Positions 12,978 through 37,674 of a DNA stretch of 64,000 nucleotides are shown here, in pieces. The stretch covers positions 1,824,001 to 1,888,000 of the forward strand of contig CBDFGR010000003.1 in NCBI GenBank assembly GCA_965247115.1, given 5' to 3'. Made by a program: the position numbers and the translations under genes. Numbering within the stretch: the stretch's first letter is position 1; each line of letters starts with the position of its first letter. A model generated the notes under the pieces. The model saw only the letters and a program-made list of their open reading frames with translations. It was not told the DNA's origin and ran no database searches. This stretch comes from Myxococcota bacterium. Lineage in GTDB: Bacteria > Myxococcota_A > UBA9160 > SZUA-336.

Positions 12978-13546
12978 CGCGCTGTCCCTGGGCGGGTGAC
13001 GATCCGTTGCACCAGGCGTACCACGACGAAGAGTGGGGGGTTCCACTGCACGACGACCGGAATCTCTTCGAGTTCCTGATTCTGGAGGGAGCGCAGGCGG
13101 GACTCTCCTGGCTCACCATCCTGCGAAAGCGGGAGGGCTATCGACGTGCCTACGACGACTTCGAGCCCACCCGGGTGGCACGCTACACGTCGCGGCGGCG
13201 GGACAAGCTCCTGCGGGACGAGGGGATCGTGCGAAACCGGCTGAAGGTCGAGGCGTCGATCCAGAACGCGCGGTGCTTCCTCGAGATCCAGAGCGAGGTC
13301 GGGAGCTTTGATCGGTATCTCTGGGCGTTCATCGCAGGCAAACCTCGCCAGAATCGTTTCGAGAAGATGAGCGAGATCCCCACGCAGACGCCAGAGTCCG
13401 AGTCACTCAGCCGAGATCTGAAGAAGCGGGGCTTCAAGTTCGTCGGCCCGACGATCTGCTACGCCTTCATGCAGGCGGTAGGCCTCGTGAACGACCACCT
13501 CGTGAGCTGCCCACGACACCGTGAGCTCGGGAGCGGTGCGCCGTAG
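12974..13546 (+). CDS. tag: DNA-3-methyladenine glycosylase I
   Basis: RCPW, YHDEEWG, LEGAQAGLSW, GIVRNRLK, GFKFVGPTICYAFMQA..NDH..C. Confidence 0.96.
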   Translation: MTRCPWAGDDPLHQAYHDEEWGVPLHDDRNLFEFLILEGAQAGLSWLTILRKREGYRRAYDDFEPTRVARYTSRRRDKLLRDEGIVRNRLKVEASIQNARCFLEIQSEVGSFDRYLWAFIAGKPRQNRFEKMSEIPTQTPESESLSRDLKKRGFKFVGPTICYAFMQAVGLVNDHLVSCPRHRELGSGAP

Positions 13547-13571
13547 CCCGCATCTGGTAAAGTCCGCCCCA

Positions 13572-14210
13572 ATGAATCCTCCCCTTGTCCGCAGCTGGCC
13601 CAGCTCCTACCTGTGGGCCCACCCGGCCTGGTTGAGCCTCGTCTTGATGGCGGGCTGCTTCGGGCCGCCCCCTCCGCCGGTCATGACGGTGCTTCCCAGC
13701 TATAACCTGACCAATAGCCGCGCGGAGCCGTTTGGCACCGAGCAGCTGGCTGGGCAGGTCTACGTTGCCAACTTCTTCTTCACCCGCTGCACCACCGTGT
13801 GCCCGATGTTGACGAATTCGATGTCGAAGCTGCTGCGTCGCTACAGGGAAGGTGGCGTCGACGGGATTCGCCTCGTCAGCATCTCGGTCGATGGAGCGTA
13901 TGACACGCCGGATCAGCTGGCTGCCTACGCGGAGCGATTCGAGATTGAGACAGAGGTCTGGTCGCTCCTGACCGGGCCTCCGGAACAGGTTCGCCCGCTT
14001 GTGGTCAAGGGCTTTCGGCTCCCGCTCGGCGATCGGCATGAGGACGAGCGGGGTATGGATATTGCTCACGCGGGTCGACTCGTTCTCGTAGACCGCTGGG
14101 GCCAGGTTCGGGGCTACTATGCTAGCGACGCGTCTGGTCTGAATGAGCTGTTCAAGCGTTCCCAGCATGTGCTCGAGGAGAAGCACCGGCCGCCGCCGCA
14201 AACTTCGTAG
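13572..14210 (+). CDS. SCO family copper chaperone
   Basis: FFFTRCTTVCP (CxxxC), SISVD, IAH, LVD..GQVRGYY. Confidence 0.92.
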   Translation: MNPPLVRSWPSSYLWAHPAWLSLVLMAGCFGPPPPPVMTVLPSYNLTNSRAEPFGTEQLAGQVYVANFFFTRCTTVCPMLTNSMSKLLRRYREGGVDGIRLVSISVDGAYDTPDQLAAYAERFEIETEVWSLLTGPPEQVRPLVVKGFRLPLGDRHEDERGMDIAHAGRLVLVDRWGQVRGYYASDASGLNELFKRSQHVLEEKHRPPPQTS

Positions 14211-14222
14211 GGTCCGCAAGTC

Positions 14223-15260
14223 GTGAGTCGCGCGCCCAAGATCGGTCTCCTGCTGATCAATCTCGGAACCCCAAGAAGTCCCGAGGTCCCAGACGTTCGG
14301 CGCTACCTGCGCCAGCTTTTGATGGACGAACACGTGCTCGACATGCCGGCGTGGCGCCGCTTCTTACTGGTCGAGCTGGTGATCGTGCCGCGCAGGGCGC
14401 GTCGCTCCGCCGCGAGCTACGAGAAGATCTGGACGCATCGTGGCTCGCCGTTGCTCACGCACGGACAGGATCTGCGCGACCTCGTGGAGGTGGAGCTGGG
14501 TGACGGAGTCGCAGTAGAGCTCGCCATGCGCTTCGGCGAGCCTTCGATTCGCTCGGCGCTCGACCGGCTCGAGGCGCGGGGTATCGACCGGCTCGTCTTG
14601 TTCCCGCTCTACGCGCAGTCGAGCTCGGCATCGACCGGATCCTCGCTGCAGGCTGTGCAAGCCGAGCTTGCGCGACGCGGCTCGGCTCTCGACCTCGCGG
14701 TCGCCCCCGCGTTCTACGCGGACCCGGCCTATCTCGAAGCGAAGCGGCGACTGGCCGCGCCCGTGATCGCAGAGGTCGACCCCGACCTCGTCCTGTTCAG
14801 CTTTCACGGCGTGCCCGAGCGGCAGCTCAAAGCCCTCGGCCTGGGCTGTCTCGAGAACGGCGGCTGCTGTTCGGCCGAGACCGGCCGGCGCGGCTGCTAT
14901 CGAGCGCAGTGTCTCCTGAGTGCGGAGGCGCTGGCCGAGCAGCTGGGCCTCGCCGGGGACCGGTACGCCGTGAGCTTTCAGTCGCGTCTGGGGCGCACGC
15001 CGTGGATCGCGCCGTTCACTGACCTTGTGCTGGCCGAGCAGGCACAACGCGGCCGTCGCCGCGTCGTGGTGATCAGCGGGTTCGTCGCGGACTGTCTGGA
15101 GACCCTCGAGGAGATCCGCATCCGGGGGCGGGAGATCTGGTTGCAAAACGGCGGCGAGGGCTTCGAGCTCGTTCCCGCCCCGAATGGCAACGCCGCGTGG
15201 GTGAAGGCCCTGGTCGAGATCGCCGGCGAGCATCTGCTGGGTGCGGATCGGAGCTCGTGA
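14223..15260 (+). CDS. hemH: Ferrochelatase (proto- or coproporphyrin) with Cys-rich insert
   Basis: LLINLGTP, GSPL, FSFHGVP, FQSRLGRTPW..P.TD, FVADCLETLEEI; CLENGGCC..CY..QC insert. Confidence 0.95.
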   Translation: MSRAPKIGLLLINLGTPRSPEVPDVRRYLRQLLMDEHVLDMPAWRRFLLVELVIVPRRARRSAASYEKIWTHRGSPLLTHGQDLRDLVEVELGDGVAVELAMRFGEPSIRSALDRLEARGIDRLVLFPLYAQSSSASTGSSLQAVQAELARRGSALDLAVAPAFYADPAYLEAKRRLAAPVIAEVDPDLVLFSFHGVPERQLKALGLGCLENGGCCSAETGRRGCYRAQCLLSAEALAEQLGLAGDRYAVSFQSRLGRTPWIAPFTDLVLAEQAQRGRRRVVVISGFVADCLETLEEIRIRGREIWLQNGGEGFELVPAPNGNAAWVKALVEIAGEHLLGADRSS

Positions 15261-16711
15261 TGACCGCCCGTCGCGACAACCCCGACCTGCCACACTTGGA
15301 TGTGGCGATTGTCGGCGGAGGCATCTCCGGCCTCGCGGCCGCGTTTCGTCTGCGTGAGCACGGGAAGTCGACTCGACCGCTTTCGGCGCGCCTGTTCGAA
15401 GCCGGCGGCCGCCTGGGTGGCACGATCCAGACCGAGCGGATCGAGGCGGAACAACGCGGCGAGTGCGTGTGCGAGGCGGGCCCGGATTCGATGGTCACCA
15501 CCAAGCCAGCGGCGATCGAGCTGTGCCGCGAGCTCGGGCTCGGCGCTGCGCTCGCTCCGCCCCGATCCGCCGAGGCCTTCTCCGTGGTCCACGAGGGGCG
15601 GTTGCATGCGTTGCCTGAGGGACTTCGACTGATCGCACCGACCGAGCGCTTGCCGTTGCTGCGCTCTGGCCTGTTCAGCTGGCCGGGTAAGCTGCGGATG
15701 CTACGCGAGTCTCGGGTCGAGGGGCGTGACGGGCTCGCGGCGGATGAGAGCGTGGAGAGCTTCGTTGTGCGGCGCTTCGGCAGGGAGGCCTTCGAGCGTG
15801 TGGCGGAGCCGGTGCTGGGCGGGTTGTTCGTCGCCGACGCGTCGGAGCTGAGCGCGGCCCGCACGCTTGGTTCGTTCGTGGAGCTCGAGCGCCAGTACGG
15901 CAGCGTGCTGCGCGGGCTCCGGGACAACGCGGGAGCATCGAGCTCGCCAGCCCAGCTGACACTCGGACACGGACTCGGCTCGCTCGTAGAACGACTGTCG
16001 GAGCGGATCCCACCGAGCTGGATCGAGCTCGACTGTGCTGCGAAGCAGATTCAACCCCTGCCAGGAGCGGGGTGGCAGATCGAGACGGCTCGGGGGATGT
16101 GGCTGGCGCGCCACGTGGTTCTCGCCTGCCCGGCGCCGCGCTGCAGCGCGATGCTGAGTGCCGCAGCCCCGACCCTGGCGAGCGCGCTTGGCGAATTGCG
16201 CTTCGCCTCCTGTGTCACCGTCAACCTGGTGTACCGACGCGGGGAGGTCGCTCGCCTTCCGGACGACTTCGGCTTCTTCGTGCCGCGGTCAGAGCAGAAT
16301 CACATTCTCGCCGCAACCTACGCGAGTGAGAAGTTCGCCGCTCGGGCGCCGGAGGGCTACGTCGTAGTGCGTACGTTCCAGGGCGGTAGGCTCGATCGCG
16401 GCGCGGTCGATCTCGACGATGAAACCCTGGTCGAGCGCTCGCACCGGGACCTGGCTCGTCTGATTGGCGTGACCGGCCCGGCCCGGGCAACCGGCCTGAC
16501 CCGTTTTCACGAAGCCGTGCCGCAGTTCGATGTCGGGTACGCGGAACGCGTGGCCAGGCTCAACCGCGAGGTCGCAAAACACGAGGGCCTCCACCTCGCA
16601 GGAAGCGCCCTCAGCGCCTACGGTCTGGCCGACTGTGTGGCGTCGGGGGAAGCCGTCGCTGCCACGGTCTGTGCGGGTCTCGCAAAGAGGGAGTCACGAT
16701 GGCGGAGCTAG
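15260..16711 (+). CDS. hemY: HemY-type proto-/coproporphyrinogen oxidase
   Basis: IVGGGISGLAAA, RLGGTIQT, EAGPDS, DESVESFVVRRFGRE, GFFVP. Confidence 0.92.
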   Translation: MTARRDNPDLPHLDVAIVGGGISGLAAAFRLREHGKSTRPLSARLFEAGGRLGGTIQTERIEAEQRGECVCEAGPDSMVTTKPAAIELCRELGLGAALAPPRSAEAFSVVHEGRLHALPEGLRLIAPTERLPLLRSGLFSWPGKLRMLRESRVEGRDGLAADESVESFVVRRFGREAFERVAEPVLGGLFVADASELSAARTLGSFVELERQYGSVLRGLRDNAGASSSPAQLTLGHGLGSLVERLSERIPPSWIELDCAAKQIQPLPGAGWQIETARGMWLARHVVLACPAPRCSAMLSAAAPTLASALGELRFASCVTVNLVYRRGEVARLPDDFGFFVPRSEQNHILAATYASEKFAARAPEGYVVVRTFQGGRLDRGAVDLDDETLVERSHRDLARLIGVTGPARATGLTRFHEAVPQFDVGYAERVARLNREVAKHEGLHLAGSALSAYGLADCVASGEAVAATVCAGLAKRESRWRS

Positions 16712-17934
16712 CCGACTACAAGCCCTCCCTGATCTCCTGGAACCTGACGAGGGCGTGCAACCTGCGCTGCCCGCACTGCTACATGGAGGGCGGACGGAAG
16801 GCAGAGAACGAGCTCACGACGGAGGAATGTCTGGGCCTGATCGACGAGATCAAGGCCCTCGGCACCGAAATGCTGATTCTGACCGGCGGCGAGCCGTTGC
16901 TGCGCAAGGACATCTACGACATCGCCCGCTACGCATCGAAGCGGGGGATCTGGGTCGTGATGGGGACCAACGGGGTTCTGGTCACCGACAGGGTCGTCCA
17001 CAAGATGATCGAGTGCGGTGTGAAGGGTGTGGCCATCAGCATCGATTCGCTCGAGCCAGCGAAACACAACCACTTTCGCGGCGGGCCGGATGCGTGGGAG
17101 TACTCGGTACGCGCGCTGGAGATCTGTCGGGCCAATGGCCTTCAAGTCCTGGTCCAGACCACGGTCATGGACATGAACTACGCCGAGATTCCCAAGCTGC
17201 TGGAGTTTGCCCGCGAGAAGGGGGCCTGGTCCTTCAATCTTTACTTCCTCGTCCAGACCGGCCGCGGCCAGCAGATGAACGATCTCTCGTCGGAACGGAC
17301 GGAAGCCATGCTCGCTCAGCTGGTGGACTGGCAGGATCGGTACCGTCCCATGCTGGTGCGCTCCAAGTGTGCGCCGCAGTTCAAGCAGATCGCCTACGAG
17401 AGGGGAGTGGGAGGTCTGGAGAGCGGCGGCTGCATGGCCGGCACCCAGTACTGTCGGATCACACCACAGGGCGACGTGACCCCGTGTCCCTACATGACCG
17501 CCGTCGCAGGCAACGTGCGTGACCAGAGCTTTGGCGAGATCTGGCGGACGTCATCCGTCTTGCGAGAGCTTCGCGACCTCTCGCAGCTCAAGGGACGCTG
17601 CGGCCGCTGCGAGTTCAACGAGCTGTGCGGCGGCTGCCGCTGCCGGGCCTACGCGGTCCACGGAGACTATCTGCAAGAGGACCCGGCCTGCCGCTATCAG
17701 CCAACCGGACGAACGCTCCAGCTCGCGGCCGTTCGCTGGAGCCCGGAAGCGGAGGCTCGGTTGGAGCGCATCCCCCTCGCCTTCATCCGCGGGAAGGTGA
17801 GGCAAGGCCTGGAGACCTACGCGGAACGCCAGGGGATCGACCTGATCACACCCGACGTGATGAAGGAAGCCCTGGCTGGCGAGGAGCGATCCGAGATGTT
17901 CGGCAAGCTGCCGCGCTTGTCAAAGCCGGACTGA
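16699..17934 (+). CDS. Radical SAM/SPASM enzyme (AhbD/NirJ-like) with C-terminal PCP_red-like domain
   Basis: ISWNLTRACNLRCPHC, TGGEPLLR, SPASM Cys (GDVTPC, CGRC..CGGCRCRA..DPAC); tail WSPEAEARLERIP..FIRGKVR..E.YA. Confidence 0.88.
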   Translation: MAELADYKPSLISWNLTRACNLRCPHCYMEGGRKAENELTTEECLGLIDEIKALGTEMLILTGGEPLLRKDIYDIARYASKRGIWVVMGTNGVLVTDRVVHKMIECGVKGVAISIDSLEPAKHNHFRGGPDAWEYSVRALEICRANGLQVLVQTTVMDMNYAEIPKLLEFAREKGAWSFNLYFLVQTGRGQQMNDLSSERTEAMLAQLVDWQDRYRPMLVRSKCAPQFKQIAYERGVGGLESGGCMAGTQYCRITPQGDVTPCPYMTAVAGNVRDQSFGEIWRTSSVLRELRDLSQLKGRCGRCEFNELCGGCRCRAYAVHGDYLQEDPACRYQPTGRTLQLAAVRWSPEAEARLERIPLAFIRGKVRQGLETYAERQGIDLITPDVMKEALAGEERSEMFGKLPRLSKPD

Positions 17935-17943
17935 GGGCCCCTT

Positions 17944-18360
17944 CTACATCCCGAAGAAGCTTCTGGCTTCCTCGAGCACCTCCACATCGATCTGCGCCAG
18001 CCCGCGGTCCTTGGCGAACTTCTCGATCCCGGTCTTGGCCATCGGACGCGCGAAGTCTGGGATGTTTGCCAGCCGCTCGCTCGCCTCGGGTGTCCACGGA
18101 AACGCCGCGCTCGAGCCGTCGAGGCTCGCGCCCATCTCCTGCATCACGCCGGGGAACGGGCACTTGCCGGCTGAGTCACCCTCGGGGCCGACCTGCACGC
18201 CCAGCGAGCCGACCACCTGGGTTTCGTAGGGATTCGTCAGCATGGCGAACTCGTGAGCGCACTCCGGACAGCGATACACGACGGTGAGTGAGCCTCGATC
18301 GGGCGGCTTCGCGTCGATCAGCTTCATGGCCTTGTCGCACGACACGCAGAGGAACTTCAT
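17944..18360 (-). CDS. Zn-ribbon (CxxC..CxxC) plus PCP_red-like domain protein
   Basis: CVSC, CPEC, a KCPF motif, WTPEASERLANIPDFARPMAK..IEKFA. Confidence 0.8.
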   Translation of the reverse strand: MKFLCVSCDKAMKLIDAKPPDRGSLTVVYRCPECAHEFAMLTNPYETQVVGSLGVQVGPEGDSAGKCPFPGVMQEMGASLDGSSAAFPWTPEASERLANIPDFARPMAKTGIEKFAKDRGLAQIDVEVLEEARSFFGM

Positions 18361-19250
18361 GCTTTCTCCTCGAAGGCGGGGGCGGGCTCGGCGACGCGTT
18401 GGCAGACCCCCTCCGCGATCCGCCGCACGGGCTGCCAGGAAACCAGTTCGGGCACTTCGCAGGGGGAGCCGCCCCGATCGCAGAGCGCAGCTAGCTCGGG
18501 GTCGAAGGGTACGCTACCCAGGCACGGAAGATCGAGCTTCACCTGTGACTGCGCGGGGAACAGAGGCTTGACCTGCCCGCAGTCGGAGCAGTAGTAGCCG
18601 TCCATGTTACAGACGTACCCCAGGATCCGGTTCGGGGTCCTCGCGAGTGCATCGACCGAGCGCGTCACGACCCCGGTCGCCAGATCGGAGGGAATCGTGA
18701 CCAGCACGAATAGAGTCGCGGGGCCCAGGAGCTCGGCGTACTGCACGATCCGTTCGGCGCCCGGGGGCAGGTCGATCAGGAGGTAGTCGAGCTTCCCCCA
18801 GTCCATGCATGCCATGAGCTCACGCAGGAACGTGAACTCCTTGGTTGCCCGCCAGGTGTGCGACGACCCGTTCGCCACATTCTCGAACTCGACGGAACGC
18901 GGCTCGGGGATCAGGCTGCCCATCGAGACCACGCCGATCCCGTTCCGCGTCGTCGGAACCGGAGCCCCGCTCTCGCCAGGAAACAGCGGCCGGTCTTGCA
19001 CCGCTCCCAGGCGTGCCTGCGAAGGGCCGTTCAGATCGGCGTCCAGGATCGAGACCGTCTTCCCCAGCTCGCGCAGCGCGTACGCGAGCTGCATCGTGAG
19101 CGTGCTCTTCCCCACGCCCCCCTTGCCGGAACCGACGGCCAGCAGGTTCCGCACGCCGGAAAGGCTCCGGGTCACACTCTCCTGCTGGGCCTCGACCTGC
19201 TGCAGGATGTCGGATCCTCCGTCCCCTGCAATGTCGTGGTAGCTCTTCAC
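18357..19250 (-). CDS. Mrp/NBP35 (ApbC-like) P-loop ATPase, Fe-S carrier family
   Basis: GSGKGGVGKST, DADLNGPS, WGKLDYLLIDLPPG, NMDGYYCSDCG, LGSVPFDP. Confidence 0.92.
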   Translation of the reverse strand: MKSYHDIAGDGGSDILQQVEAQQESVTRSLSGVRNLLAVGSGKGGVGKSTLTMQLAYALRELGKTVSILDADLNGPSQARLGAVQDRPLFPGESGAPVPTTRNGIGVVSMGSLIPEPRSVEFENVANGSSHTWRATKEFTFLRELMACMDWGKLDYLLIDLPPGAERIVQYAELLGPATLFVLVTIPSDLATGVVTRSVDALARTPNRILGYVCNMDGYYCSDCGQVKPLFPAQSQVKLDLPCLGSVPFDPELAALCDRGGSPCEVPELVSWQPVRRIAEGVCQRVAEPAPAFEEKA

Positions 19251-19266
19251 GCTCTACTCCGCGGCA

Positions 19267-20142
19267 TCATCGCTGCGTTCGCGAGTCCGGGTTCGCCACG
19301 TAGCGGGTGTACGTTCGCGCACGCTGGAAGCCCATGGACTCGAGCCTATCCCATGAGATCTCCTCGCTCGAGACCCTCGGAATCGTCACCACGAGGGAGC
19401 CCGCCTGGCTAGCGACTCGAACCACCATCTCCAGCAGGACACGGGCCTCTGCTTCGCCGTCGCTCAGCTGTGTTCCGCCCAGGCCGACGATCTCGCGCTG
19501 ACCGTGTCGGGGAAGGTCGCGGAACAGCGCGCAGGCCTCGACCCGCGTCTCGGACGCGATGGCCAGCCCCTGGATCTGGTCCTTCCGGTTCTGCAGCGTG
19601 TCCAGGGCTCGCTCCCAGCTGCGGGAAACGGACGGGTCGAGGGCTCCGTAGCGCAGGAGGTCGTCCAGGCTGGCGGGGCTGACCACAGCCGTGTTCGCCG
19701 GGGGCGCGAGCGGCTTTGGCAGTGTGAAGTCGGCAAAGCTGTGCTCCGCCTCGTACCCGACGGCCTCGAACAAGGCGCCTACCGTCGGCAGGTCGTCGGG
19801 CACCTCCGCCACCATCCGGGGGGGACCCAGTACGGCGAGCTTTTGGCTCAGTGAGTCGAGCAGGTGCCGGGCGTGGCCTCGCCGCAGGAAGTCCGGATGG
19901 ACGCCGATCCTGTGGATCAGGGTTTCGCGTTCCCGCTTGGCGCCCGTGACCACGCCGATGGGATCGCGGTCGGCCGACGCCACCATGCAGCTGCTGCACC
20001 AGACGTTGAGCTCGCGGATCTCCCGCTTGAAATCCCCCGTGGACAGCGCGGCTTGATCCGAAAAGTGAACGGTGTAGCACGCGTTCAGCGCGTCGGTCAG
20101 GAGCGCGATGTCGTCGGTTCTGCAGAAGCGGTAAGCGGGCAT
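19267..20142 (-). CDS. GNAT-family N-acetyltransferase (probably tandem domains)
   Basis: IGVHPDFLRRGHARHLL acetyl-CoA-binding motif; LFEAVGY, LESMGF. Confidence 0.78.
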   Translation of the reverse strand: MPAYRFCRTDDIALLTDALNACYTVHFSDQAALSTGDFKREIRELNVWCSSCMVASADRDPIGVVTGAKRERETLIHRIGVHPDFLRRGHARHLLDSLSQKLAVLGPPRMVAEVPDDLPTVGALFEAVGYEAEHSFADFTLPKPLAPPANTAVVSPASLDDLLRYGALDPSVSRSWERALDTLQNRKDQIQGLAIASETRVEACALFRDLPRHGQREIVGLGGTQLSDGEAEARVLLEMVVRVASQAGSLVVTIPRVSSEEISWDRLESMGFQRARTYTRYVANPDSRTQR

Positions 20143-20152
20143 GGTCTGGTCA

Positions 20153-20268
20153 GGCGGGTTATCGGCGGGCGGAGCCCGCCTGCCCGAACGGCCAGCCTAC
20201 GGCTGGCCTCGGGCGGGTTATCGGCGGGCGAAGCCCCCTTGCCCGAACGGTCAGCCTACGGCTGGCCT
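20153..20268. repeat. Two tandem 59-bp palindromic units (second repeat family)
   Basis: Units start 20153 and 20212; hairpins GGCGGGC-GGA-GCCCGCC and GGCCAGCC-TAC-GGCTGGCC. Confidence 0.85.
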
Positions 20269-20271
20269 GGG

Positions 20272-22347
20272 TCACTCCTGTTTCTCCCCGGACCCCTCTT
20301 GCTGGGTCAGGAGCAGCCGCATGGCCGCCAGCTCGTTCATCGGGCTCACCTCGTTCAGCGGCTCGTCGCCAGTGCTGCTCGCCTCGGACTCGCGTTTTTG
20401 TGCGGCGGGGCACTGCGCGGCTGCGGCGCGTTCGTCGCGGCGCTCGTTTTCAGAGTCGACACCATTCTGGGAGACCATCTCGGCCATCATCTGCAGGCCG
20501 AGCTCGATACCGGCTTCGACGCGCGGGAGGTCGATCTCCCCACCTGCCGCCTCCCGAGCCAGCTCCTCGATCCGCGCCTGGGTCCGGTCTCGCATGAAGC
20601 CGGCGGGGACGCGTTGGATGCGCGCGATCGCGTCCTCGGTCCAGTCGAATTCAGAGAACAGCGGCGCGCGCCGGGCATCCCGCGCGATCAATCTCTTTCC
20701 ATCCGTCTCGGCCTCGGCGATCCGCTCGGCGTCCTCCGCGCCCTGCTCCGGCGCGGCGGCGAAGGGCAGGCCCGTCTCCTCCTCGATCAGCTTCCGGGCG
20801 AACTCGAGCGTCACGGTCTTCTGCCTCCGCAGCCGGGCTGACTTCTCGATCCGCGCCTTCGTGCGCCGCCGCAGGTAGGCCTCTTCGATTCCGAGCATCG
20901 CTCGGCGGGCCTCTTTGGTCCATTGCAGCTTGCGTCCGTCGTAGCTCGGCTCGTCGGCGGCCCCGCCCTCGCTCTTGACGAGGCGCTCGACCATCTCGGC
21001 CGTCAGGATCTCGAAGCTCGTGCCGCCACATACACTACACAGTGCGGGGTCGGGCTCGCGCGCGGTCAGCCCGCAGCTCTCGCACACGGCCACGGCCTGC
21101 TCCTGCGACCTACCGATGGCGACCGCCTCCGCCAGCCTGTTCATCGGGGCTTGCTTGGGCATGAAGCGCGCCATCGCTTCGTCCAAGAGCGAGCTGGTGA
21201 CGACGCTGTGACCCTTCTCCAGCGCCAGCCGCAAGATCGCCGTGCGCGCGATGCCCACGACCAGCTTGGGAACGCGCTCCATCCGCTCCTCGGCTTCTCG
21301 AGTCCACTTGATGCTCTCCTCCGCGCGGACGTCGAGCTCGGGCCGAGCGACTCGCGTGGTCAGCAGAATGTCGCACTCGGAGAGCCGCAGAAGGTTCTCC
21401 GAATTGCTCCCCAGGTTGGGGTCGTCCGGATCGCTGTGGACCCCGATCCGGCCCAGCACGAGCAGCCAGGGCTTGGTCTTGGTCGCGTGGTCGTGGATCT
21501 TCTGAAAGGTCTTGCCGTCGAGGAGGGTCTTGCCGACCTCGGTGCCCTCTGCGCCCGCCATCTGGTGGGCGACTTCCAGGTGAGACTGGTAGATCTGGGC
21601 GAGGCCGGTGTCGATGATCTCCTCGTGGAGCTGGTTCTGCTCCTCGAAGCGGAAGACCTTCGACGCCTTCTCGGTGAGGGTCCCGACCAGCCCGTTGAAT
21701 ACGAGGTAGTGGAGGTAGGGGTCGTACACGCCGATGAGCTCGACTCGCTTGTTGAACGCCCTGGCCAGCTCGAGCGCGGTCTCCAGCGCCCCGAACGACT
21801 GCGGGCTCCCGTCGATGCCGACGAGGATCGTGTCCCGCTCCGGCTCGTCCTTCTTGGGCACGTGCTTCGTCACCCAGACGTCCTGGGAACACGAACGGGC
21901 CACGCGCTCGCAGACCGATCCGATCTGGCTGTCGCGCTGACGTCCGAGACCCAGCGCTCCCAGGACCACCAGGTCGCAGTCCGACTCTTCCAGATCCCGG
22001 CGGATCTCGACGTGATGCTTCCCGTCGATCATGCGGCCCTCGAAAGGCAGCTCCTCTCTTGCGCAGCGCTGTTTCATGCTTTCGAGGTAGCTGTCCGAGA
22101 TCAGCTCGAGCCCCATGGTGATCAGGCTGTCGTGGATCTTCCGCTGCCGCTCGAGCTCGTTCTCCTCCAGATACTCTTCCGGGAGCGAGTACTCCATCTG
22201 CTTGAAGCGGTAGTCGTGCATCTTGGCCGCGTAGACGTGACAGCCCACCAACTCGGAGCTGAAGGCCTTGCCGACGCGCACCGCGGACTCGATGGCCCGG
22301 TTGGAGTGTGCCGAGTTGTCGACGGGCACGTAGATCTTCTTGTACAT
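20272..22347 (-). CDS. Multidomain universal stress protein: USP-USP-PCP_red-Zn ribbon-PCP_red-PCP_red
   Basis: YKKIYVPVDNS..GSVCERV; ILVGIDGS..GSNSENLLR; CESC..CSVC; three WTxEA/DA modules; GGAGG RBS before ATG 22347. Confidence 0.85.
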   Translation of the reverse strand: MYKKIYVPVDNSAHSNRAIESAVRVGKAFSSELVGCHVYAAKMHDYRFKQMEYSLPEEYLEENELERQRKIHDSLITMGLELISDSYLESMKQRCAREELPFEGRMIDGKHHVEIRRDLEESDCDLVVLGALGLGRQRDSQIGSVCERVARSCSQDVWVTKHVPKKDEPERDTILVGIDGSPQSFGALETALELARAFNKRVELIGVYDPYLHYLVFNGLVGTLTEKASKVFRFEEQNQLHEEIIDTGLAQIYQSHLEVAHQMAGAEGTEVGKTLLDGKTFQKIHDHATKTKPWLLVLGRIGVHSDPDDPNLGSNSENLLRLSECDILLTTRVARPELDVRAEESIKWTREAEERMERVPKLVVGIARTAILRLALEKGHSVVTSSLLDEAMARFMPKQAPMNRLAEAVAIGRSQEQAVAVCESCGLTAREPDPALCSVCGGTSFEILTAEMVERLVKSEGGAADEPSYDGRKLQWTKEARRAMLGIEEAYLRRRTKARIEKSARLRRQKTVTLEFARKLIEEETGLPFAAAPEQGAEDAERIAEAETDGKRLIARDARRAPLFSEFDWTEDAIARIQRVPAGFMRDRTQARIEELAREAAGGEIDLPRVEAGIELGLQMMAEMVSQNGVDSENERRDERAAAAQCPAAQKRESEASSTGDEPLNEVSPMNELAAMRLLLTQQEGSGEKQE

Positions 22348-22382
22348 CGCTGCCTCCGTGTTTGGAGCCGGGGTTGTCATGC

Positions 22383-23927
22383 TCACGACTCTCGGACCTC
22401 CTGGTGCGCGGGTGCCTGCGGCTGCTCATTCGCCCAGCGCCGGCGAAAGGCGCGAAGCCCGATCATCTCGCCGACGGCCGCCAGGAAGATCACGGCGATC
22501 GGCCAGACGTAGGCCGTGAGCGGCGTTTCGGGCTCGAGCAACAGGTAGTACCAGCGAGAGATCGCGCGCTGCTTGCCTTCTTCGTTGCGATCGCCGTCCC
22601 AGATGTTCCAGGCGATCGGGATCATCTGGCCGGGCGTAAAGGCGACCTCGTCGTCCTGGCTTGCCCCCAGGCTGCGGCGCAAGACGACCCGGTACTGCCC
22701 ATCCTGGTACGCGCCGACGGCGCTCACCGGCGAGGGCCGGGGTGTCACGTCGTCCATGCCACGGGTCAGGAAGGTCTCGGTCTCGCCTCCGGCGCTCCAT
22801 TGCCAGCTATCGACCGGACGTCGGCGGTCGCCCATCAGGAAATAGGGCTTCTTTCCCTCCTCGAGCTCACGCGCGGGGAAGAGGACCGACACCCGATCGG
22901 TCGGCCTGGCGTTGCTGCCATCATCGTGGAACCGGTCGTGCCAGACGAGGAGCAGGGCGAGCTCGCGCTCGTCGAACAGGACCCGTGCGTTCACGCTCTG
23001 AACCGAGGGATTGAACAGCCTCGGTCGCTGGATGATCTGCCCGGCCATGCGGACGTCGAGTGCCGGAACCTCGTCCCAGGCCGGCGCGAACGGATCGTCG
23101 GGAATGGAGTCGGTCTTCGTACCCCGTACGATCTCGCCCCAGACGGGCTTGCGGCCGATGCTCTCGGTGTAGTTCGCCAGGTGCGCCAGATCCTCGTGGG
23201 CCCACGCGTCGGAGAAGGAGGGCATGGGCGTACCGTTCACGCCCGTTGTCAGGGTCCTGTAGATATCCTGTGCGGTGCTTCCGCCGCGCAGGACCCAGGG
23301 CTGGGTGAGGTCGGCGGGCCAGATCTTGTTTCCCCACTCGTCCTCTTGCTCGGATGCCGAGGGTCCGTTCCCGCGCCCGCTCTCGCCATGGCACTTGGCG
23401 CACTCCGCCTTCACGTAGACCTCGGCGCCGCGTGCAAGGCTCTCGGGCGAGGCCTCTGGCAGCCCGTCGATCAGGAACTCCTGCTCCGCGGGGTAGTCCG
23501 CGAAGTCCTCGCTGAAGCTCTTGAGGTAGTCCACCAGCTGCCAGATCTGCTCGTCGCTGAGGATCCCCTGCCACTCGGGCATGGAGGTGCCGGGCATGCC
23601 CTTGCGGACGATCTGGAACAGATCGAGGTCGGTCGGGAGCTCGCCCTGCATCGTCGTGCGAATCTTGTAGACGCCTCGCCGGAAGTCCCTGGGACGCGGG
23701 TCGAGCAGGTCGGCCATCAAGCCCTGGCCATCCCCCTCCGCTCCGTGGCACTGCTCGCAGTGGTCGGCGTACAGCGCCTTCCCGGCGGCCAGATTCTCTG
23801 GGCTGGTCTCGCGAGGGCTCGGCGGAGCCAGACGGAAGCCGCGCGACTCGAAGTCCTGCGCCGTTGCGCCGGCGGGCAAGAGAAGTGCGCCGGCGAGCAG
23901 GGCTATGACGCAGCGTGCGTGCGTCAT
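22383..23927 (-). CDS. Diheme cytochrome c fused to ethylbenzene-dehydrogenase-gamma/DOMON-like domain, C-terminal TM anchor
   Basis: Signal peptide, CEQCH, CAKCH, GTSMP/GTPMP; LLVWHD, DRVSVLFP, KPYFLMG, IAWNIWDG..E..K. Confidence 0.85.
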   Translation of the reverse strand: MTHARCVIALLAGALLLPAGATAQDFESRGFRLAPPSPRETSPENLAAGKALYADHCEQCHGAEGDGQGLMADLLDPRPRDFRRGVYKIRTTMQGELPTDLDLFQIVRKGMPGTSMPEWQGILSDEQIWQLVDYLKSFSEDFADYPAEQEFLIDGLPEASPESLARGAEVYVKAECAKCHGESGRGNGPSASEQEDEWGNKIWPADLTQPWVLRGGSTAQDIYRTLTTGVNGTPMPSFSDAWAHEDLAHLANYTESIGRKPVWGEIVRGTKTDSIPDDPFAPAWDEVPALDVRMAGQIIQRPRLFNPSVQSVNARVLFDERELALLLVWHDRFHDDGSNARPTDRVSVLFPARELEEGKKPYFLMGDRRRPVDSWQWSAGGETETFLTRGMDDVTPRPSPVSAVGAYQDGQYRVVLRRSLGASQDDEVAFTPGQMIPIAWNIWDGDRNEEGKQRAISRWYYLLLEPETPLTAYVWPIAVIFLAAVGEMIGLRAFRRRWANEQPQAPAHQEVRES

Positions 23928-24674
23928 TCAGTGCCCCTCCGCGGAGCTCGACGCCCGCGGCGTGTAGCCTGCGGCGTCGTAGATGTAGGCGACCACCTGC
24001 CAGATCTCTTCTTCTGTCAGAAGGTCCTGCCAGATCGGCATGGAGGAGTTCCAGGGAGTCGCACCGTCCGGGAGCCCGGGACCGCCTGTGGCGACGCGCC
24101 AGAAGACGTAGGTCTCCTCCAGCTGCGCGATCGTGCCGCTGTCGCGAAAGTTGGCCGGCAGCGGGTTCACCGCGTCGGCGAAGTGGCCCTGCCCGTTCAG
24201 GTAGTCGCCATGGCAGTACATGCAGTTGCGGTAGTAGACGCGTCGACCCGCGGCGAGGTTCTCCGCGTTCACCTCCATGCCCTCAGGACGGTGGCCGCCG
24301 AGCACATCGAAGTCAGCCCCGTGCAGGCGGAAGATCGCCGGGGGCTCGGGGTGAATCACGCGAGCCTCGAACGGCGGGTCGAAGCGCGGCCGGACGCTGT
24401 TGAACGTGTACCAGCCGAGTAGCAGCGGAACGGCGACGAGCACCCCCAGCCTGGGAGCGGCGAGATGGCGCTCCCGCAACAGTGTCACGAGGGGGGCCAG
24501 AAAGGCCGCCGTGCGTTCCTGGTCGGCCAGGATGTACACGAGGATGGCGACGGTGGTGATCGCCATGTACAGGCCCATGACCTGGCCCGGGATCGGCGGC
24601 TGGACGCCGAACCGGAGCGCCGCCCACACCCCGAGCCAGACGAGCGCAGCCAGCGGGAGCGCGAGCCTACGCAT
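23928..24674 (-). CDS. Membrane-anchored monoheme cytochrome c
   Basis: Three N-terminal hydrophobic segments, CMYCH, PLPANF, SSMPIW. Confidence 0.88.
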   Translation of the reverse strand: MRRLALPLAALVWLGVWAALRFGVQPPIPGQVMGLYMAITTVAILVYILADQERTAAFLAPLVTLLRERHLAAPRLGVLVAVPLLLGWYTFNSVRPRFDPPFEARVIHPEPPAIFRLHGADFDVLGGHRPEGMEVNAENLAAGRRVYYRNCMYCHGDYLNGQGHFADAVNPLPANFRDSGTIAQLEETYVFWRVATGGPGLPDGATPWNSSMPIWQDLLTEEEIWQVVAYIYDAAGYTPRASSSAEGH

Positions 24675-25587
24675 TCTGGTCTCCAGACGCGACTGCCCGA
24701 CGGATCGCCAGCCTGCGCATGATCCACACCCCCCCGTTGAACAGCACGATCAGGGACACGAGCGGCACTGCCGGGTGGGCGAGGCGCTCGGAGAGCGACA
24801 CCTCGCCCGAGAGGTAGCTCACGATCTGGTCGAGCTCCTCGGTTGGCACCGTCTCTGCGAAGTCCTGCAGCATGAGTCCCGGCGGGAAGCCCTCCGCGAT
24901 GACGGAGTTCGGATCCGTGATCGACTGGCGGATCTCCGCTGCCGACAGCCGCTCGCGCACGTTCGTGAGGGGAGGGCCCACGAGCCGGATGGTTCCGTTC
25001 ACGTCGTGGCACGCGATGCAGCCGTGCCTGGTGACGAGGTCCCTGCCCGGGTGGGTGTCGACCGCGGCCGTCGGTTGCTCCTTCTTGGTCGCCGCTGCTG
25101 CAACATCTTGGGCCGTGATCTCGACCGTGACCTCGCCGCCGAGCGACTGCAGGTAGGCGATCAGCGCCTTGAGCTCGGTCGGGGCCAGGTCTGCCGGTGG
25201 CAGGGTCGCGACCGGCATGATGGTCAGGCCGCCGGCGGCGGCGAACTCCTCGACCACGTACGCGCCCGGGTCGACGAGCGATTCGACCAGGTAGGCCTCG
25301 GCGCTCATGCCAGGCTTGCGCGACGCGGCCCGGGCGCCTATGCCGCGGAGATCGGGCCCGCGGTTGTTTCCCTGCTCGGTGACCTTGTGGCAGAGCAGGC
25401 AACCCCCCCTCGCTCCGAGCAGGGTTCTGCCCATGCTGACCAGTGCGTCGGTATCGGTGTCGACGCTGATCTCTAGCTCGGGCGGCGGATGCTCCTCCGT
25501 CTGCGTCAACCAGAACTGACCGATCGACCCGTAGAAGACGGTGATCACGATCACGAACAGGAGGATTCTCAGGAAGACGGCTCTCAC
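24667..25587 (-). CDS. Membrane-anchored diheme cytochrome c
   Basis: N- and C-terminal TM, CLLCH, CIACH, GPDL/GPPL, YLVESLVDP. Confidence 0.9.
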   Translation of the reverse strand: MRAVFLRILLFVIVITVFYGSIGQFWLTQTEEHPPPELEISVDTDTDALVSMGRTLLGARGGCLLCHKVTEQGNNRGPDLRGIGARAASRKPGMSAEAYLVESLVDPGAYVVEEFAAAGGLTIMPVATLPPADLAPTELKALIAYLQSLGGEVTVEITAQDVAAAATKKEQPTAAVDTHPGRDLVTRHGCIACHDVNGTIRLVGPPLTNVRERLSAAEIRQSITDPNSVIAEGFPPGLMLQDFAETVPTEELDQIVSYLSGEVSLSERLAHPAVPLVSLIVLFNGGVWIMRRLAIRRAVASGDQNA

Positions 25588-27338
25588 GTCGCCAGTCGCT
25601 CCCGCCGCTCGGAGCGCATCGCCAGAGCGAACACCCCCGCGACGAACAGGAAGAACGTGATGACGATGATCGACACGACCATGGTCGCGAACCCGTGGGT
25701 CGGGATGTACGCGCCCTCGCTCGTGTCGCGCATGACCTGATAGACGTGCCAGTGCTGGCGGACGCCGGAGCGGATGTAGCCCATCAGTCCCATCAGCCAG
25801 GTGAAGGTGGCGGCCAGGAAGAACAGCACGTACTGCGAGAGCCTCGGCATCTGGCCCCAGCGGATCTCACCGAGCGACTGCGCTCCGCGGAACGCCGGAC
25901 CCTCGATCGCGAGGAACAGCACCATGAAGGCGCCGACCATGAGCGGCTGGTAGCCGGACAGCCCGACGCGCACGGCAGCGGGGACGAAGTAGCCGTAGAT
26001 CCCGATCCAGACGATCCCGACGATGACCGCCGCGAAGGCCAGGCCCTGGATCCAGTTGCCGAGGACGGCGAAGCCCGCCGTGGCCAGCTTGTTGCCGCGC
26101 CGGTACAGCATGAACGTGATGAACGTGGAGATGATCATCAGGTTCACGGCGGTGTTCTTGGCAGACATGACGCCGAGCACGCCGAGCCTGGGGTGGTGCG
26201 CCGCGCCCATCGCCTGCATCTCGGCGAACGTCGCGATGATGGTGTGGGGCGTCGCCCAGACCGCGAGGCCGGTCGCCAGAACGATCAGCACCGGGGCCTG
26301 GAACACGCGATAACGCTCGCCGCCGGGGATGCGGCCCATGGCCAGCCACAGGTAGAGGTTGATCGCCAGGAACAGCGAGCCGATCAGGATGGCCTGCAGA
26401 ATCCACAGCTGGGCGAAGGAGCCGCCCATCATCGACACGCCCATCTGCTGGCTGTACGTGTAGATCTCAAGCCCGAGGTAGTAGCCGGCGAACGGCAGGG
26501 GGATGAAGGCAGCGACGGCGATGAAGCTCCCGATGTACCCCATCCAGTCGTAGTTGGCCCGTTCCTCGTCGTCGGTCGCCGCCAGGAAGCGGAAGGCGGC
26601 ATAGGCGCCCACGATGGCTCCGCCGAAGCACACGTTGGCGAGCAGCCGGTGGATGTTCAGTGGGTTCCAGGCGAAGTTCATGAAGGCGTCGGCCCGGCTG
26701 GTGACCGTGATGGCCAGGTCGGTGCCCTCGATGCCGCCCGGAGTCATCATGTAGCCCGTCCAGGCGTTCGTGATGACCAGGATCGCGATTCCCCCGACGT
26801 TGACCATCACTCCCAGGAAGATGTGCCAGCCCTTGCGCGGCCCCTGGAGCAGGTCCCACGTGTACCAGTACAGGTACGCGAACAGCGCCTCTCCGAAGAT
26901 CACGGCCACGTAGAAGCCCCAGGTGGGGTCGAACACCTTCTCCATGTGGGAGACGAACCTGGGGTAGAGCCCGACCAGCGCCACCAGCAAGAGCGCGCCG
27001 AGGGTGGCGGTGATCGTGTAGCTCATTGCCAGAAGGCGGGTGAAATCCTTGGCCAGTCCGTCGTAGCGCTCGCTCTTCGTGACGAAGCCGAGCACCTCGG
27101 CGATCAGCGCGAAGATCGGCACGCCCAGCACGAAGGCAGCGAAAAGGAGGTGACCTTGGGCCAGGCACCAGACGAGCACGCGGCTGCCGATCACGGGGAA
27201 GTGGCGGTAGTCGGCGGCCTCGAACGCCTGCGGCAGCAGCCAGACCAGGAGATAGACGCCGGTGAGGATGAGCGAGACCTTCAGAACCCCGCCGCGAACT
27301 CCCCCCAGGGCTCCCGGCCAGCTCTTGGCCTCGGCCAT
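25584..27338 (-). CDS. Cytochrome bd-superfamily subunit I-like oxidase (non-canonical, Nitrospira-type/OR-N-like)
   Basis: QGHLLFAAFVLGVP (heme His), NAW..YMMTP, NIHRLLAN (His), MGYIRSGVRQHW in place of EVGRQPW. Confidence 0.85.
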   Translation of the reverse strand: MAEAKSWPGALGGVRGGVLKVSLILTGVYLLVWLLPQAFEAADYRHFPVIGSRVLVWCLAQGHLLFAAFVLGVPIFALIAEVLGFVTKSERYDGLAKDFTRLLAMSYTITATLGALLLVALVGLYPRFVSHMEKVFDPTWGFYVAVIFGEALFAYLYWYTWDLLQGPRKGWHIFLGVMVNVGGIAILVITNAWTGYMMTPGGIEGTDLAITVTSRADAFMNFAWNPLNIHRLLANVCFGGAIVGAYAAFRFLAATDDEERANYDWMGYIGSFIAVAAFIPLPFAGYYLGLEIYTYSQQMGVSMMGGSFAQLWILQAILIGSLFLAINLYLWLAMGRIPGGERYRVFQAPVLIVLATGLAVWATPHTIIATFAEMQAMGAAHHPRLGVLGVMSAKNTAVNLMIISTFITFMLYRRGNKLATAGFAVLGNWIQGLAFAAVIVGIVWIGIYGYFVPAAVRVGLSGYQPLMVGAFMVLFLAIEGPAFRGAQSLGEIRWGQMPRLSQYVLFFLAATFTWLMGLMGYIRSGVRQHWHVYQVMRDTSEGAYIPTHGFATMVVSIIVITFFLFVAGVFALAMRSERRERLAT

Positions 27339-27527
27339 CCACGCCTCCCCACTGCAACGCGGCCCATCGGCCCGCGGGTCCGGTTGAGATTCGCGCTACG
27401 GTATGCTGAAATGCCGCGGGCTGTCCAGAGGTCACAGGAGGGTTTGCCGGAGCCTCCAGGCTTGAGACCTCACAGTCACCGCGTCGAGTCGCCGCACTCC
27501 GGCTTGTCACAGGCGATAGGGGGATCC

Positions 27528-28274
27528 GTGGACAACCGACTCATTCTTGTAGCAGCTTGCCTGGCCTTCCTTCTGCCCGCGACGGGCGGCGGCCAGGAAG
27601 ACAAGGCCTGGGACCCCGCGATGGGCACCGCGACCATCACGGGGAGCGTCAAGTTCAACGGAAAGAAGCCGCGCACGCGGCCCATCGACATGGCTGGCGC
27701 AGACGAGAAGTGCGCGGAGCTTCACGGCGGCAAGAGGCTCCGGCCGGACACCGTCGTCTTGAACGAGAACGGAACGCTTCGGAACGTCTTCGTCTGGGTC
27801 AAGTCGGGCGCCGAGGGCTGGAGCTTTCCGATGCCCGATGGAGACGTTCTGCTGGACCAGAACGGCTGTACGTACGCCCCTCACGTGCAGGGCATGCGGA
27901 CGGGCCAGTCGCTGTCTGTCAAGACCAGCGATCCCACGGCGCACAACGTCCACGGCTACGCGAAGGTCAACCGCTCGTTCAATCGCTCCCAGCCAGCCGG
28001 TGCCGCCAATGTCTCCATCAGGATGAGACGGGATGAGGCGAGCCCCCCGATGAAAGTCAAGTGCGACATTCATCCCTGGATGAACGCGTACGTAGCCGTG
28101 GTGGACCATCCCTACTTTGCGGTGACCGGGGACGACGGCTCATTTACGCTGTCGAATCTCCCCCCAGGCACCTACACGATCGAGGTCTGGCACGAGAAGT
28201 ACGAGACGATGGAGCAGACCATCACCATCGGCGACAACGAGTCCCAGGCACTCGACTTCACTTACGAAGGCTGA
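27528..28274 (+). CDS. Exported cupredoxin-like/carboxypeptidase-regulatory-like domain protein
   Basis: Signal peptide, DQNGCTYAPHV, HNVH, VKCDIHPWM, HPYFAVT..DGSF.L.NLPPGTY.IEVWH. Confidence 0.82.
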   Translation: MDNRLILVAACLAFLLPATGGGQEDKAWDPAMGTATITGSVKFNGKKPRTRPIDMAGADEKCAELHGGKRLRPDTVVLNENGTLRNVFVWVKSGAEGWSFPMPDGDVLLDQNGCTYAPHVQGMRTGQSLSVKTSDPTAHNVHGYAKVNRSFNRSQPAGAANVSIRMRRDEASPPMKVKCDIHPWMNAYVAVVDHPYFAVTGDDGSFTLSNLPPGTYTIEVWHEKYETMEQTITIGDNESQALDFTYEG

Positions 28275-28287
28275 CAGGGGGAACCCA

Positions 28288-30766: not shown

Positions 30767-30770
30767 AGCA

Positions 30771-31400
30771 GTGGAAGTAGTCATTCCCTACCGCACCGAG
30801 CCGCATCCGATCACGGGCGTCACCAGCGGGAAGCTCGGCGTCTGGCTGTTCCTCGCGTCCGAGGTCATGCTCTTCGGGGCGCTCTTCTCGTCGTACGTGC
30901 TGCTCCGGGTCGGCTCGTTGCCCGAGTTCTGGCCGACGGGCGTCGACGCCGGTCTGAACGTGCCGATCGGCACGTTCAATACAATGGTGCTGATCACCTC
31001 GAGCATCACGATGGTCATGTCGTGGGCCTCGCTCAAGATGAACCAGCTTGGCGCCTTCAAGGCCTACTTCGGCGCCACGATCGGGCTCGGCCTGGTCTTC
31101 CTCATCGTCAAGGGCTTCGAGTACGGCGACAAGTTCGGCCACCACATCTTCCCCGCCACCGGCTGGCCGGATGCTGCCAGCCCGTCCACGTTCTACGCCA
31201 TCTACTTCACGCTGACCGGACTGCACGGCCTGCACGTGCTGTTGGGCATCCTCGTCAATCTGTGGCTGCTGATCTGGGGGACCAGGTTGTGGCAGACCGA
31301 CCGAGAGCGCTTCGCCGGCAGGATCGAGATCGCCGGACTCTACTGGCACTTCGTGGATCTGGTCTGGATCTTCCTCTTCCCCGTGCTCTACCTTCTATAG
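30771..31400 (+). CDS. coxC: Cytochrome c oxidase subunit III, operon 1
   Basis: [37 protein letters not shown]. Confidence 0.94.
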
Positions 31401-31409
31401 GGAACCATC

Positions 31410-35350: not shown

Positions 35351-35371
35351 CGGGAGACCAGAAGGGGCGGC

Positions 35372-37075: not shown

Positions 37076-37096
37076 TGCGCAGGTGCCGATGAGAGA

Positions 37097-37666: not shown

Positions 37667-37674
37667 CCCGAACC

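Follow-up and report, generated by a model that had tools for sequence, protein, structure and literature searches.

In a 64,000-nucleotide window of a Myxococcota genome (GCA_965247115.1, contig CBDFGR010000003.1, positions 1,824,001 to 1,888,000), an oxidase operon of the cytochrome bd-like OR-N type is accompanied by a cassette of accessory genes, three of which encode proteins with the same small module. This module, PF08369, is the PCP_red domain that ends the BchB subunit of the dark-operative protochlorophyllide reductase (DPOR). The cassette is genuine, occurs widely, in several bacterial phyla, and goes together with OR-N-like oxidases. With moderate confidence, we propose that its module-bearing and neighbouring genes likely make or tailor heme and likely deliver it to the adjacent oxidase. 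A published description of such a cassette was not found in the literature covered, which did not extend to subscription journals and preprint supplements.

The host genome has a size of 5.17 Mb and a completeness of 98%. All cassette genes, among them those for the Mrp ATPase, the GNAT, the three c-type cytochromes and the CydA-like subunit, were confirmed at the positions given by an initial annotation, which had been made from the sequence alone. The features are as follows, with the evidence in brackets.

16699..17934, plus strand: radical SAM/SPASM enzyme from the neighbourhood of AhbD and NirJ2, with three predicted [4Fe-4S] clusters and a C-terminal PF08369 module at nt 17737-17871 (Pfam, NCBIfam, Cys conservation, motif spacing, tree).
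17944..18360, minus strand: Zn-ribbon protein of 138 aa, with a CxxC-x22-CxxC Zn-ribbon-like domain, a flexible linker containing a Cys-Pro (C67) and a PF08369 module at nt 17962-18096 (conservation, model, fold search).
18357..19250, minus strand: divergent P-loop ATPase of the Mrp/ApbC family, with a deviant Walker A motif and a C-terminal CxxC (PF10609, conservation, PDB relatives).
19267..20142, minus strand: GNAT-fold acyltransferase with conserved Cys and His residues (Pfam, linkage, conservation).
20272..22347, minus strand: universal stress protein (USP) with tandem USP domains of the ATP-binding type, helical inserts with His pairs, three modules and a four-Cys rubredoxin-like domain; after the USP domains follow module 1 (nt 21175-21306), the four-Cys domain, module 2 (20800-20922) and module 3 (20512-20643) (Pfam, conservation, model, fold matches).
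22383..23927, minus strand: membrane-anchored diheme cytochrome c with a heme b domain like the DMSO-reductase gamma subunit, similar to alternative NxrC (PF09459, two CxxCH; TIGR03477 below its cut-off).
23928..24674, minus strand: membrane-anchored monoheme cytochrome c (Pfam, sequence scan).
24667..25587, minus strand: membrane-anchored diheme cytochrome c (Pfam, sequence scan).
25584..27338, minus strand: OR-N-like CydA-like subunit, with no CydB gene in the operon (PF01654 at 65.6 bits, alignment to 5DOQ, conservation).
13521..16711, plus strand: genes for SCO and ferrochelatase (hemH) and the hemY gene, which precede the radical SAM gene; a local arrangement and not a conserved part (Pfam, NCBIfam).

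On the minus strand, the gene order is CydA-like subunit, diheme cytochrome, monoheme cytochrome, diheme cytochrome with heme b domain, USP, GNAT, Mrp and Zn-ribbon protein. The USP protein most likely starts with the ATG at 22347 (691 aa), matching its homologues, and the Mrp stop overlaps the Zn-ribbon start (ATGA). The radical SAM gene belongs to the neighbourhood, as was noted before, but it lies on the opposite strand, last in the run SCO-hemH-hemY-radical SAM, and converges on the oxidase operon. A position 3' of hemH-hemY is shared by close relatives of the host. In most acidobacterial loci, unlike in the host, the radical SAM gene follows 3' of the Zn-ribbon gene on the same strand.

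The five copies of one module in three neighbouring proteins, and their identification as PCP_red, both stood up to the profile search. PF08369 matches the radical SAM enzyme (aa 347-391, E 1.2e-13), the Zn-ribbon protein (aa 89-133, E 8.5e-17) and three stretches of the USP protein (E 2.3e-20). Scored singly, four of the five copies exceed the cut-off of 32.5 bits (63.5, 55.8, 43.3 and 35.5 bits). The middle USP module stays below it at 19.1 bits and is retrieved by a profile trained on the cassette (E 3e-15). A six-frame search of the whole genome returned exactly five PF08369 matches, all inside the cassette, and the cassette-trained profile detected no further copy anywhere in the host genome. 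The five-copy repeat is real and not a product of chance. The predicted structures agree with this family assignment. The module of the Zn-ribbon protein superposes on 2KRU with a root-mean-square deviation (rmsd) of 0.9 A over 52 columns, on the DPOR chain 2YNM_D with 1.2 A over 49 columns and on 2L09 with 2.0 A, the Foldseek E-values of these superpositions being weak (1e-3 to 7e-2). USP module 3 matches 2L09 with a Z-score of 7.8 and an rmsd of 1.8 A. Sequence family and three-helix fold are thus those of the C-terminal domain of BchB/ChlB (2YNM_D, 2KRU) and of the stand-alone protein Asr4154 (2L09). In contrast to DPOR, the cassette modules are tails or repeats on unrelated proteins, and they occur in a genome without any DPOR component. 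As the initial annotation had stated, chlorophyll-reductase genes are missing: PF00148, the DPOR/nitrogenase component family, has no match in the 98% complete genome.

In an alignment of 25 modules, the conserved columns are occupied by W, A, R, P, F, R, E and G; a His, Cys, Met or Tyr that could act as a ligand is not conserved. The absence of His, Cys and Met from these columns speaks against an axial heme ligand within the module. Searched against 1.84 billion representatives, the module profile retrieved 2088 proteins. The best 150 of them carry two to six copies each; 71 match parts of the USP protein, and the remainder are fragments, module-only proteins and fusions to Zn-ribbon or radical SAM domains. 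Copy numbers range from one to six per protein, stand-alone or module-only proteins occur (2L09, L089), and other hosts of a cofactor type include a flavin-reductase-like protein and a heme-oxygenase-like fusion (P0155). The variable copy number and the unrelated hosts make the module look like an interaction repeat. Only PF08369 clusters were found in the ESM Atlas, at 0.80-0.82. A weak likeness of the fold to the AAA+ helical lid of RuvBL (Z 7.1) is not significant (E 0.4-0.8), and in a sequence test of this idea against 219 P-loop open reading frames (ORFs) the best score was 7.8 bits, versus 5.1 in a matched control. The accessible text of PMC12022308, PMC7317204, PMC13474568 and 10.1101/2025.02.17.634645 states nothing on partners of the BchB C-terminal domain.

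A scan of GTDB genomes with the USP protein returned at least 561 loci. The 80 best of them, which to judge by their record titles come mostly from Acidobacteriota and Myxococcota, were analysed. Full 10-kb flanks were available for 48 of these, and all counts out of 48 refer to them. The GNAT gene is present in 48/48 loci, and the CydA-like gene together with all three cytochromes in 47/48. A Zn-ribbon match occurs in 35/48 (one being a weak match inside the USP gene), Mrp in 34/48 and the radical SAM gene in 29/48; coxB and coxA are found in 28/48 and 25/48. SCO (2/48), hemH (2/48) and hemY (3/48) are rare, and the inclusion of hemH and hemY in the system has to be given up. Since the 48 loci are close relatives chosen via the USP gene, even samples of genomes were added. 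In an Acidobacteriota-centred sample, the CydA-like gene and the USP gene are found in the same 8 of 151 genomes, one being the centre genome, and all eight carriers hold the Zn-ribbon gene. Of 151 genomes of the host's own class, 25 carry PF08369, and these include all 11 that carry the CydA-like gene. From the other 14 genomes with PF08369, nine were inspected: four contain BchB-type proteins, recognised by eye and by the likeness of the tail to 2YNM_D, three hold this cassette truncated at the end of a contig, one holds a flavin-reductase-like fusion, and in one the match was not retrieved. No test statistic is attached to the linkage, as kin are not independent. The co-occurrence with a non-canonical bd-like oxidase that had been suspected from the single locus is thereby borne out. 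Distant USP homologues are also recorded, as protein records without neighbourhoods, in Ca. Manganitrophus (Nitrospirota), Nitrospinota and SAR324. The BchB-type proteins in four genomes of the host class (L093, L094, L101, L102) point to phototrophic members.

A second subtype of the cassette was detected in two genomes (G057, G073). Here a radical SAM enzyme with one module is followed by a USP protein with five modules and by a three-module protein, and a further single-module protein lies beside two divergent CydA-like operons, with nine modules per genome. The Zn-ribbon gene was not found in either genome, and no Mrp or GNAT homologues were seen in the stretches fetched from them. The constant core is the oxidase plus the USP protein, usually with the radical SAM enzyme, and Mrp with the Zn-ribbon gene forms a sub-module. 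The idea of one network including Mrp consequently holds for part of the family: Mrp is present in 34 of the 48 loci, but the second subtype does with a radical SAM enzyme, a USP protein and a three-module protein. A core function in which modules dock on the Mrp ATPase became less likely for the cassette, since two genomes with nine modules each have no Zn-ribbon gene. Apparent fusions of Mrp with the Zn-ribbon protein, or of the module with the radical SAM enzyme (P0121-P0124), are partly out of frame and likely frameshift artefacts. An in-frame fusion in L076, a locus with a broken GNAT gene, was discounted as evidence.

Two further observations concern these relatives. In G073 (L089:11800-17243), the second-subtype cassette is separated from the bd-like operons by genes for a molybdopterin enzyme of the Rieske-3Fe4S kind, a Rieske subunit and a MauG-type protein, a set that we take to resemble that of arsenite oxidase. 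In two genomes, the CydA-like operon ends with a domain of about 250 aa that has a PF08369 tail (L090:10538-11476, L091:15444-16352).

The CydA-like gene is the only one in the host genome, and no CydB-like gene was found in its operon. Aligned to the CydA of Geobacillus (5DOQ), the protein keeps His21, Glu108 and His186 as H63, E150 and H230; Glu101 is replaced by Y143 and Glu378 by S524. Across 61 homologues H63, Y143, E150, H230, M391 and H531 are invariant, and H529, which together with H531 makes up a pair of extra conserved histidines, is present in 59. With Tyr for Glu101, one of the two proton-channel glutamates, Ser for the heme ligand Glu378 (Glu378/445) and no CydB in the operon, the protein is by its predicted residues not a canonical cytochrome bd quinol oxidase. 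It resembles the OR-N family (bioRxiv 10.1101/2021.01.16.426971), which according to the available part of that preprint has the N-terminal helices of CydA, the equivalent of His19, about 13-14 membrane helices, no CydB and adjacent c-type cytochromes. In our protein, the His19 equivalent (H63) is kept in 61/61, CydA has no CxxCH, the operon encodes three cytochromes, and a crude scan indicated 13 hydrophobic windows. OR-N members have 10 or 14 helices; for the subfamilies N1 and N2, 14 are given in the same text, and N2 often stands alone. The four-gene make-up is the same as in the bd-like_3/alt_NxrC_2/two-cytochrome cluster of Nitrospira, Nitrospina and anammox bacteria, as far as this is laid out in the accessible parts of PMC6606698 and PMC3578206. 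The portions available of the papers on the OR-N family and the bd-like_3 cluster describe no accessory cassette, and the function of OR-N is stated to lack experimental confirmation (PMC10839748 and PMC9040806, both in excerpt).

The best hidden Markov model (HMM) matches of the radical SAM enzyme are NirJ2 (TIGR04055, 357 bits for a cut-off of 500), AhbD (TIGR04545, 314/500) and TIGR04053 (286/395), and HMMs of peptide maturases reach at most 172 bits. No protein in 251 genomes of the phylum attains the AhbD score of 500. Eight SPASM cysteines are invariant in 38/38 aligned homologues, with a spacing of 20-17-37-2-5-2-17 from C224 to C331, and the sequence contains the AhbD motif CX3CX2C plus CX20-33CX17CX36-37CX2CX5CX2CX17-35C. 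This full spacing is described for AhbD of methanogens and sulfate reducers in the available part of PMC10452713. The complete eight-Cys motif predicts three [4Fe-4S] clusters. A quick tree was built from 51 sequences, with no characterised AhbD among them. It unites in a single group 18 module-associated enzymes, taken from Myxococcota and Acidobacteriota-dominated loci, with a support of 90 in the SH-like approximate likelihood ratio test (SH-aLRT). Separate groups comprise 15 AhbD-like proteins (SH-aLRT 100) and 13 TIGR04053-like proteins (99). The best plasmid match is a Paenibacillus enzyme, 39% identical, from a cluster of two radical SAM genes and AsnC. One module-bearing enzyme of the same tree group (L143:6616-8013, G348) has no cassette or oxidase gene within 15 kb.

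The heme-pathway genes of the carriers give a mixed picture. ChdC, HemF and AhbA/B have no matches in the host genome, PF17805 (AhbA/AhbB) is found in 0/5 carrier genomes, and genes of the ChdC/chlorite-dismutase family are present in 3/3 acidobacterial carriers. The enzyme shares with AhbD and NirJ2 the radical SAM domain, the eight-Cys SPASM spacing and the best HMM matches; unlike them, it scores below the cut-offs, has a tree group of its own and a PF08369 tail, and occurs without AhbA/B genes in a genome that has HemN. The enzyme thus appears AhbD-like in its predicted anatomy, its scores do not place it in that family, and no gap in the pathway forces an AhbD reaction. AhbD itself also occurs outside the siroheme pathway, according to the accessible text of PMC13564367.

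The cassette Mrp is a divergent paralogue beside a housekeeping Mrp, with 172 bits to PF10609 versus 338 for the second Mrp elsewhere in the genome. It remains below the NCBIfam cut-offs for ApbC (116/348 bits) and MrpORP (152/450). Its Walker A motif GKGGVGKST is invariant in 33 rows and the CxxC of C221/C224 in 49/49. Cfd1 (156 bits) is a closer PDB relative than the Thermococcus kodakarensis proteins 3VX3/5AUN (120 bits for 3VX3). Mrp and Zn-ribbon genes overlap at stop and start in 36/47 pairs, and 48/48 loci with the Zn-ribbon ORF have Mrp. With the Mrp/ApbC/Cfd1 carriers and the HypB-HypA pair of T. kodakarensis, the two proteins share the deviant Walker A motif, the CxxC, the Mrp fold and the coupling of an ATPase gene to a Zn-finger partner. 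The ATPase-type HypB of T. kodakarensis, a member of the Mrp family, binds the Zn-finger protein HypA (PMC7055735, in the part available). Here, the partner differs in having a PF08369 module and no HypA Ni motif (its start is MKF in 28/28), and no HypA entry is among the fold matches listed for it. Five cysteines of the Zn-ribbon protein are conserved in 45/45, four being those of the ribbon. The Cys-Pro, CP[FVMW] in 44/44, lies inside the flexible linker, a low-confidence part of the model, and presumably resembles a heme-regulatory motif. The layout of the whole protein is weakly like that of NrdR, a match that is not significant.

The USP protein was modelled with a pLDDT of 70 and a pTM of 0.51. 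Its predicted tandem fold is like those of Rv2623 and TTHA0350 (Z 25 and 23), with which it shares the ATP motif G-2x-G-9x-G(S/T); the glycines G130/G133/G143 and G299/G302/G313 are kept in 32/32 diverse homologues. Unlike those proteins, it carries a helix-turn-long-helix insert of about 50 residues in each USP domain, the four-Cys domain and the three modules. The inserts are its most conserved part. Among homologues down to 39% identity, the His pair H44/H72 is present in 30/32 and H213/H241 in 32/32. The two histidines of a pair are separated by 28 positions and lie at roughly equal distances on either side of the predicted turn, so that they might face each other. None of the four rubredoxin-like cysteines is substituted in 78 close homologues, and related proteins match PF21349. 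A plasmid search with the USP protein returned generic USPs only.

Taken together, we suggest the following sequence of events. The radical SAM enzyme would first receive its three [4Fe-4S] clusters from the Mrp paralogue, whose partner would be the Zn-ribbon protein. This enzyme would then act on an iron-porphyrin without O2, by coproheme decarboxylation of the AhbD type or a related tailoring reaction. The reaction product, or a metal, may be bound by the USP protein in its His-bearing inserts and passed on under ATP control to the CydA-like subunit, and the GNAT might tune the delivery by acylation, for which the acylation of a USP by a GNAT in mycobacteria is a precedent. The PF08369 modules would be protein-protein docking units that join these parts and not heme binders, and the electrons of the oxidase would come from periplasmic cytochromes and not from quinol.

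In favour of this proposal are the linkage of cassette and oxidase, the heme-type HMM scores and AhbD-like Cys spacing of the radical SAM enzyme, the single tree group of the module-associated enzymes, the place of the gene 3' of hemH-hemY in the host and close relatives, the Cys-Pro in the Zn-ribbon linker and the recurrence of the module on other proteins of a cofactor type. Several observations weigh against it. The radical SAM enzyme stays under both the AhbD and the NirJ2 curated cut-offs, and in the quick tree, without characterised AhbD, it groups apart from the phylum's higher-scoring AhbD-like proteins. Its gene is absent within 10 kb from 19 of the 48 full loci, and the copy in L143 stands without an oxidase. 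The host has a HemN over the cut-off and two ferrochelatases, both with the NLGTP start that we take to be typical of protoporphyrin ferrochelatases; together these suggest that heme b can probably be made without the radical SAM enzyme. Heme-copper oxidase genes near 25-28 of the 48 loci offer alternative clients, and the Mrp/Zn-ribbon pair is dispensable in the second subtype. Lastly, the model confidence in the USP insert region is 50-74, and heme binding by the inserts is a prediction from His conservation and helix spacing only. A bolder form of the proposal is possible, if rather unlikely: OR-N oxidases would use an undescribed cofactor, a heme in modified form or a site of heme and metal on H529/H531/Y143, and the cassette would be its biosynthetic machine. 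The radical SAM reaction would then be new, the His-pair USP protein would be a chaperone for heme or metal that is gated by ATP, and PF08369 would be a portable tag for docking enzymes to their partners, here as well as in DPOR.

There is a small chance that the product of the cassette is instead a non-heme component of the active site. Mrp and the Zn-ribbon protein would then act as a metallochaperone like HypB/HypA, Cu or Fe would reach the extra CydA histidines by way of the USP His pairs, and the radical SAM enzyme may modify a protein and not a porphyrin. The loss of Glu378 to Ser next to the conserved H529 (59/61), H531 and Y143 (61/61) would suit such a site, the Mrp profile does match the HypA-binding HypB (3VX3/5AUN; PMC7055735, in part), and peptides are named as frequent SPASM substrates in the excerpt of PMC10452713. 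The accessible text of PMC6606698 further mentions putative copper sites in one Nitrospira bd-like oxidase, but this is another paralogue, bd-like_2. Moreover, the Zn-ribbon protein has the MKF start in place of the Ni motif and no HypA among its listed fold matches, Mrp has the Fe-S-bridging CxxC in 49/49 and scores higher with Cfd1 than with 3VX3 (156 > 120 bits), and peptide-maturase HMMs fall far below the heme-type ones. Slightly less plausible is a sensor or regulator, in which the USP protein reads ATP, redox state through its rubredoxin-like site and heme through His pairs and Cys-Pro and, with the GNAT, switches the oxidase or heme synthesis at low O2, the radical SAM enzyme being an ordinary low-O2 heme synthase. 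USP and GNAT are indeed the most constant partners of the oxidase (47-48/48), the ATP-motif glycines are invariant (32/32), and the ChdC-family genes of all three acidobacterial carriers would make AhbD there a low-O2 alternative. USPs in general, with no tie to the cassette family implied, rise under O2 limitation in Nitrospira marina (PMC8115632, available part). However, Pfam detects no DNA-binding domain in any cassette protein, the dedicated Mrp and the three-cluster enzyme with a common module point to assembly, and the one-to-one match of the USP gene with the oxidase fits a dedicated factor.

That the modules themselves bind or cap tetrapyrroles and pass heme along the three proteins seems improbable. 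Such a role is suggested by the only characterised module host, a tetrapyrrole enzyme in whose complex (DPOR, 2YNM) the domain is modelled, and by heme-type enzymes among the other hosts; it fits poorly with 25 aligned modules devoid of a conserved His, Cys, Met or Tyr ligand, with one to six copies per protein, as expected of interaction repeats, and with stand-alone and module-only proteins. The last alternative takes the four membrane genes as an anchor for nitrite oxidoreductase (NXR), as proposed for the bd-like_3/alt_NxrC_2 cluster of the same make-up (PMC6606698 and PMC3578206, accessible parts), with the cassette serving NXR. It is largely refuted for the host genome and we give it hardly any probability: unlike the hosts of that cluster, this bacterium has no NXR, the best match to an NxrA/NarG-type (type II DMSO-reductase) alpha subunit reaching 92 bits versus a cut-off of 985 in a 98% complete genome, and the PF09459 gene of the operon is the genome's only one. 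Without NxrA/NarG in the host, the oxidase module works here without NXR.

The surroundings of the cassette form a respiratory island, with two heme-copper oxidase operons upstream of the cassette oxidase (27507-31724 and 34658-38609), a UbiA-family gene (4539-6236) and SCO. The first gene of one cox operon (27507-28274, plus strand) encodes a carboxypeptidase-regulatory-like domain protein, whose homologues adjoin the CydA-like operons in G057 and G073. Between the two heme-copper oxidase operons lies a gene for a hydrophobic protein of 509 aa (32264-33793, minus strand). It contains three internal repeats that resemble one another, and neither Pfam nor NCBIfam gave a match. The spacer between the USP and GNAT genes (20143-20271) contains two near-identical copies of a GC-rich element of about 58 bases; a metatranscriptome contig (run X6) skips about 60 bases there, which indicates that the copy number varies between strains. 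The RNA data consist of assembled contigs from three metatranscriptome runs, mostly 90-95% alike and with small word shares, and do not establish transcription in the host.

In nitrite and manganese oxidisers, OR-N bd-like oxidases have been proposed to act as terminal oxidases or as complexes that route electrons. By tracking such an oxidase one to one, the gene set points to factors that are probably needed for the active enzyme, and it makes the function of OR-N oxidases testable. Every part of the cassette belongs to a known fold. That the oxidase module occurs in a genome lacking NXR sets it apart from nitrite oxidation. If our proposal is true, PF08369 would gain a function outside chlorophyll synthesis.

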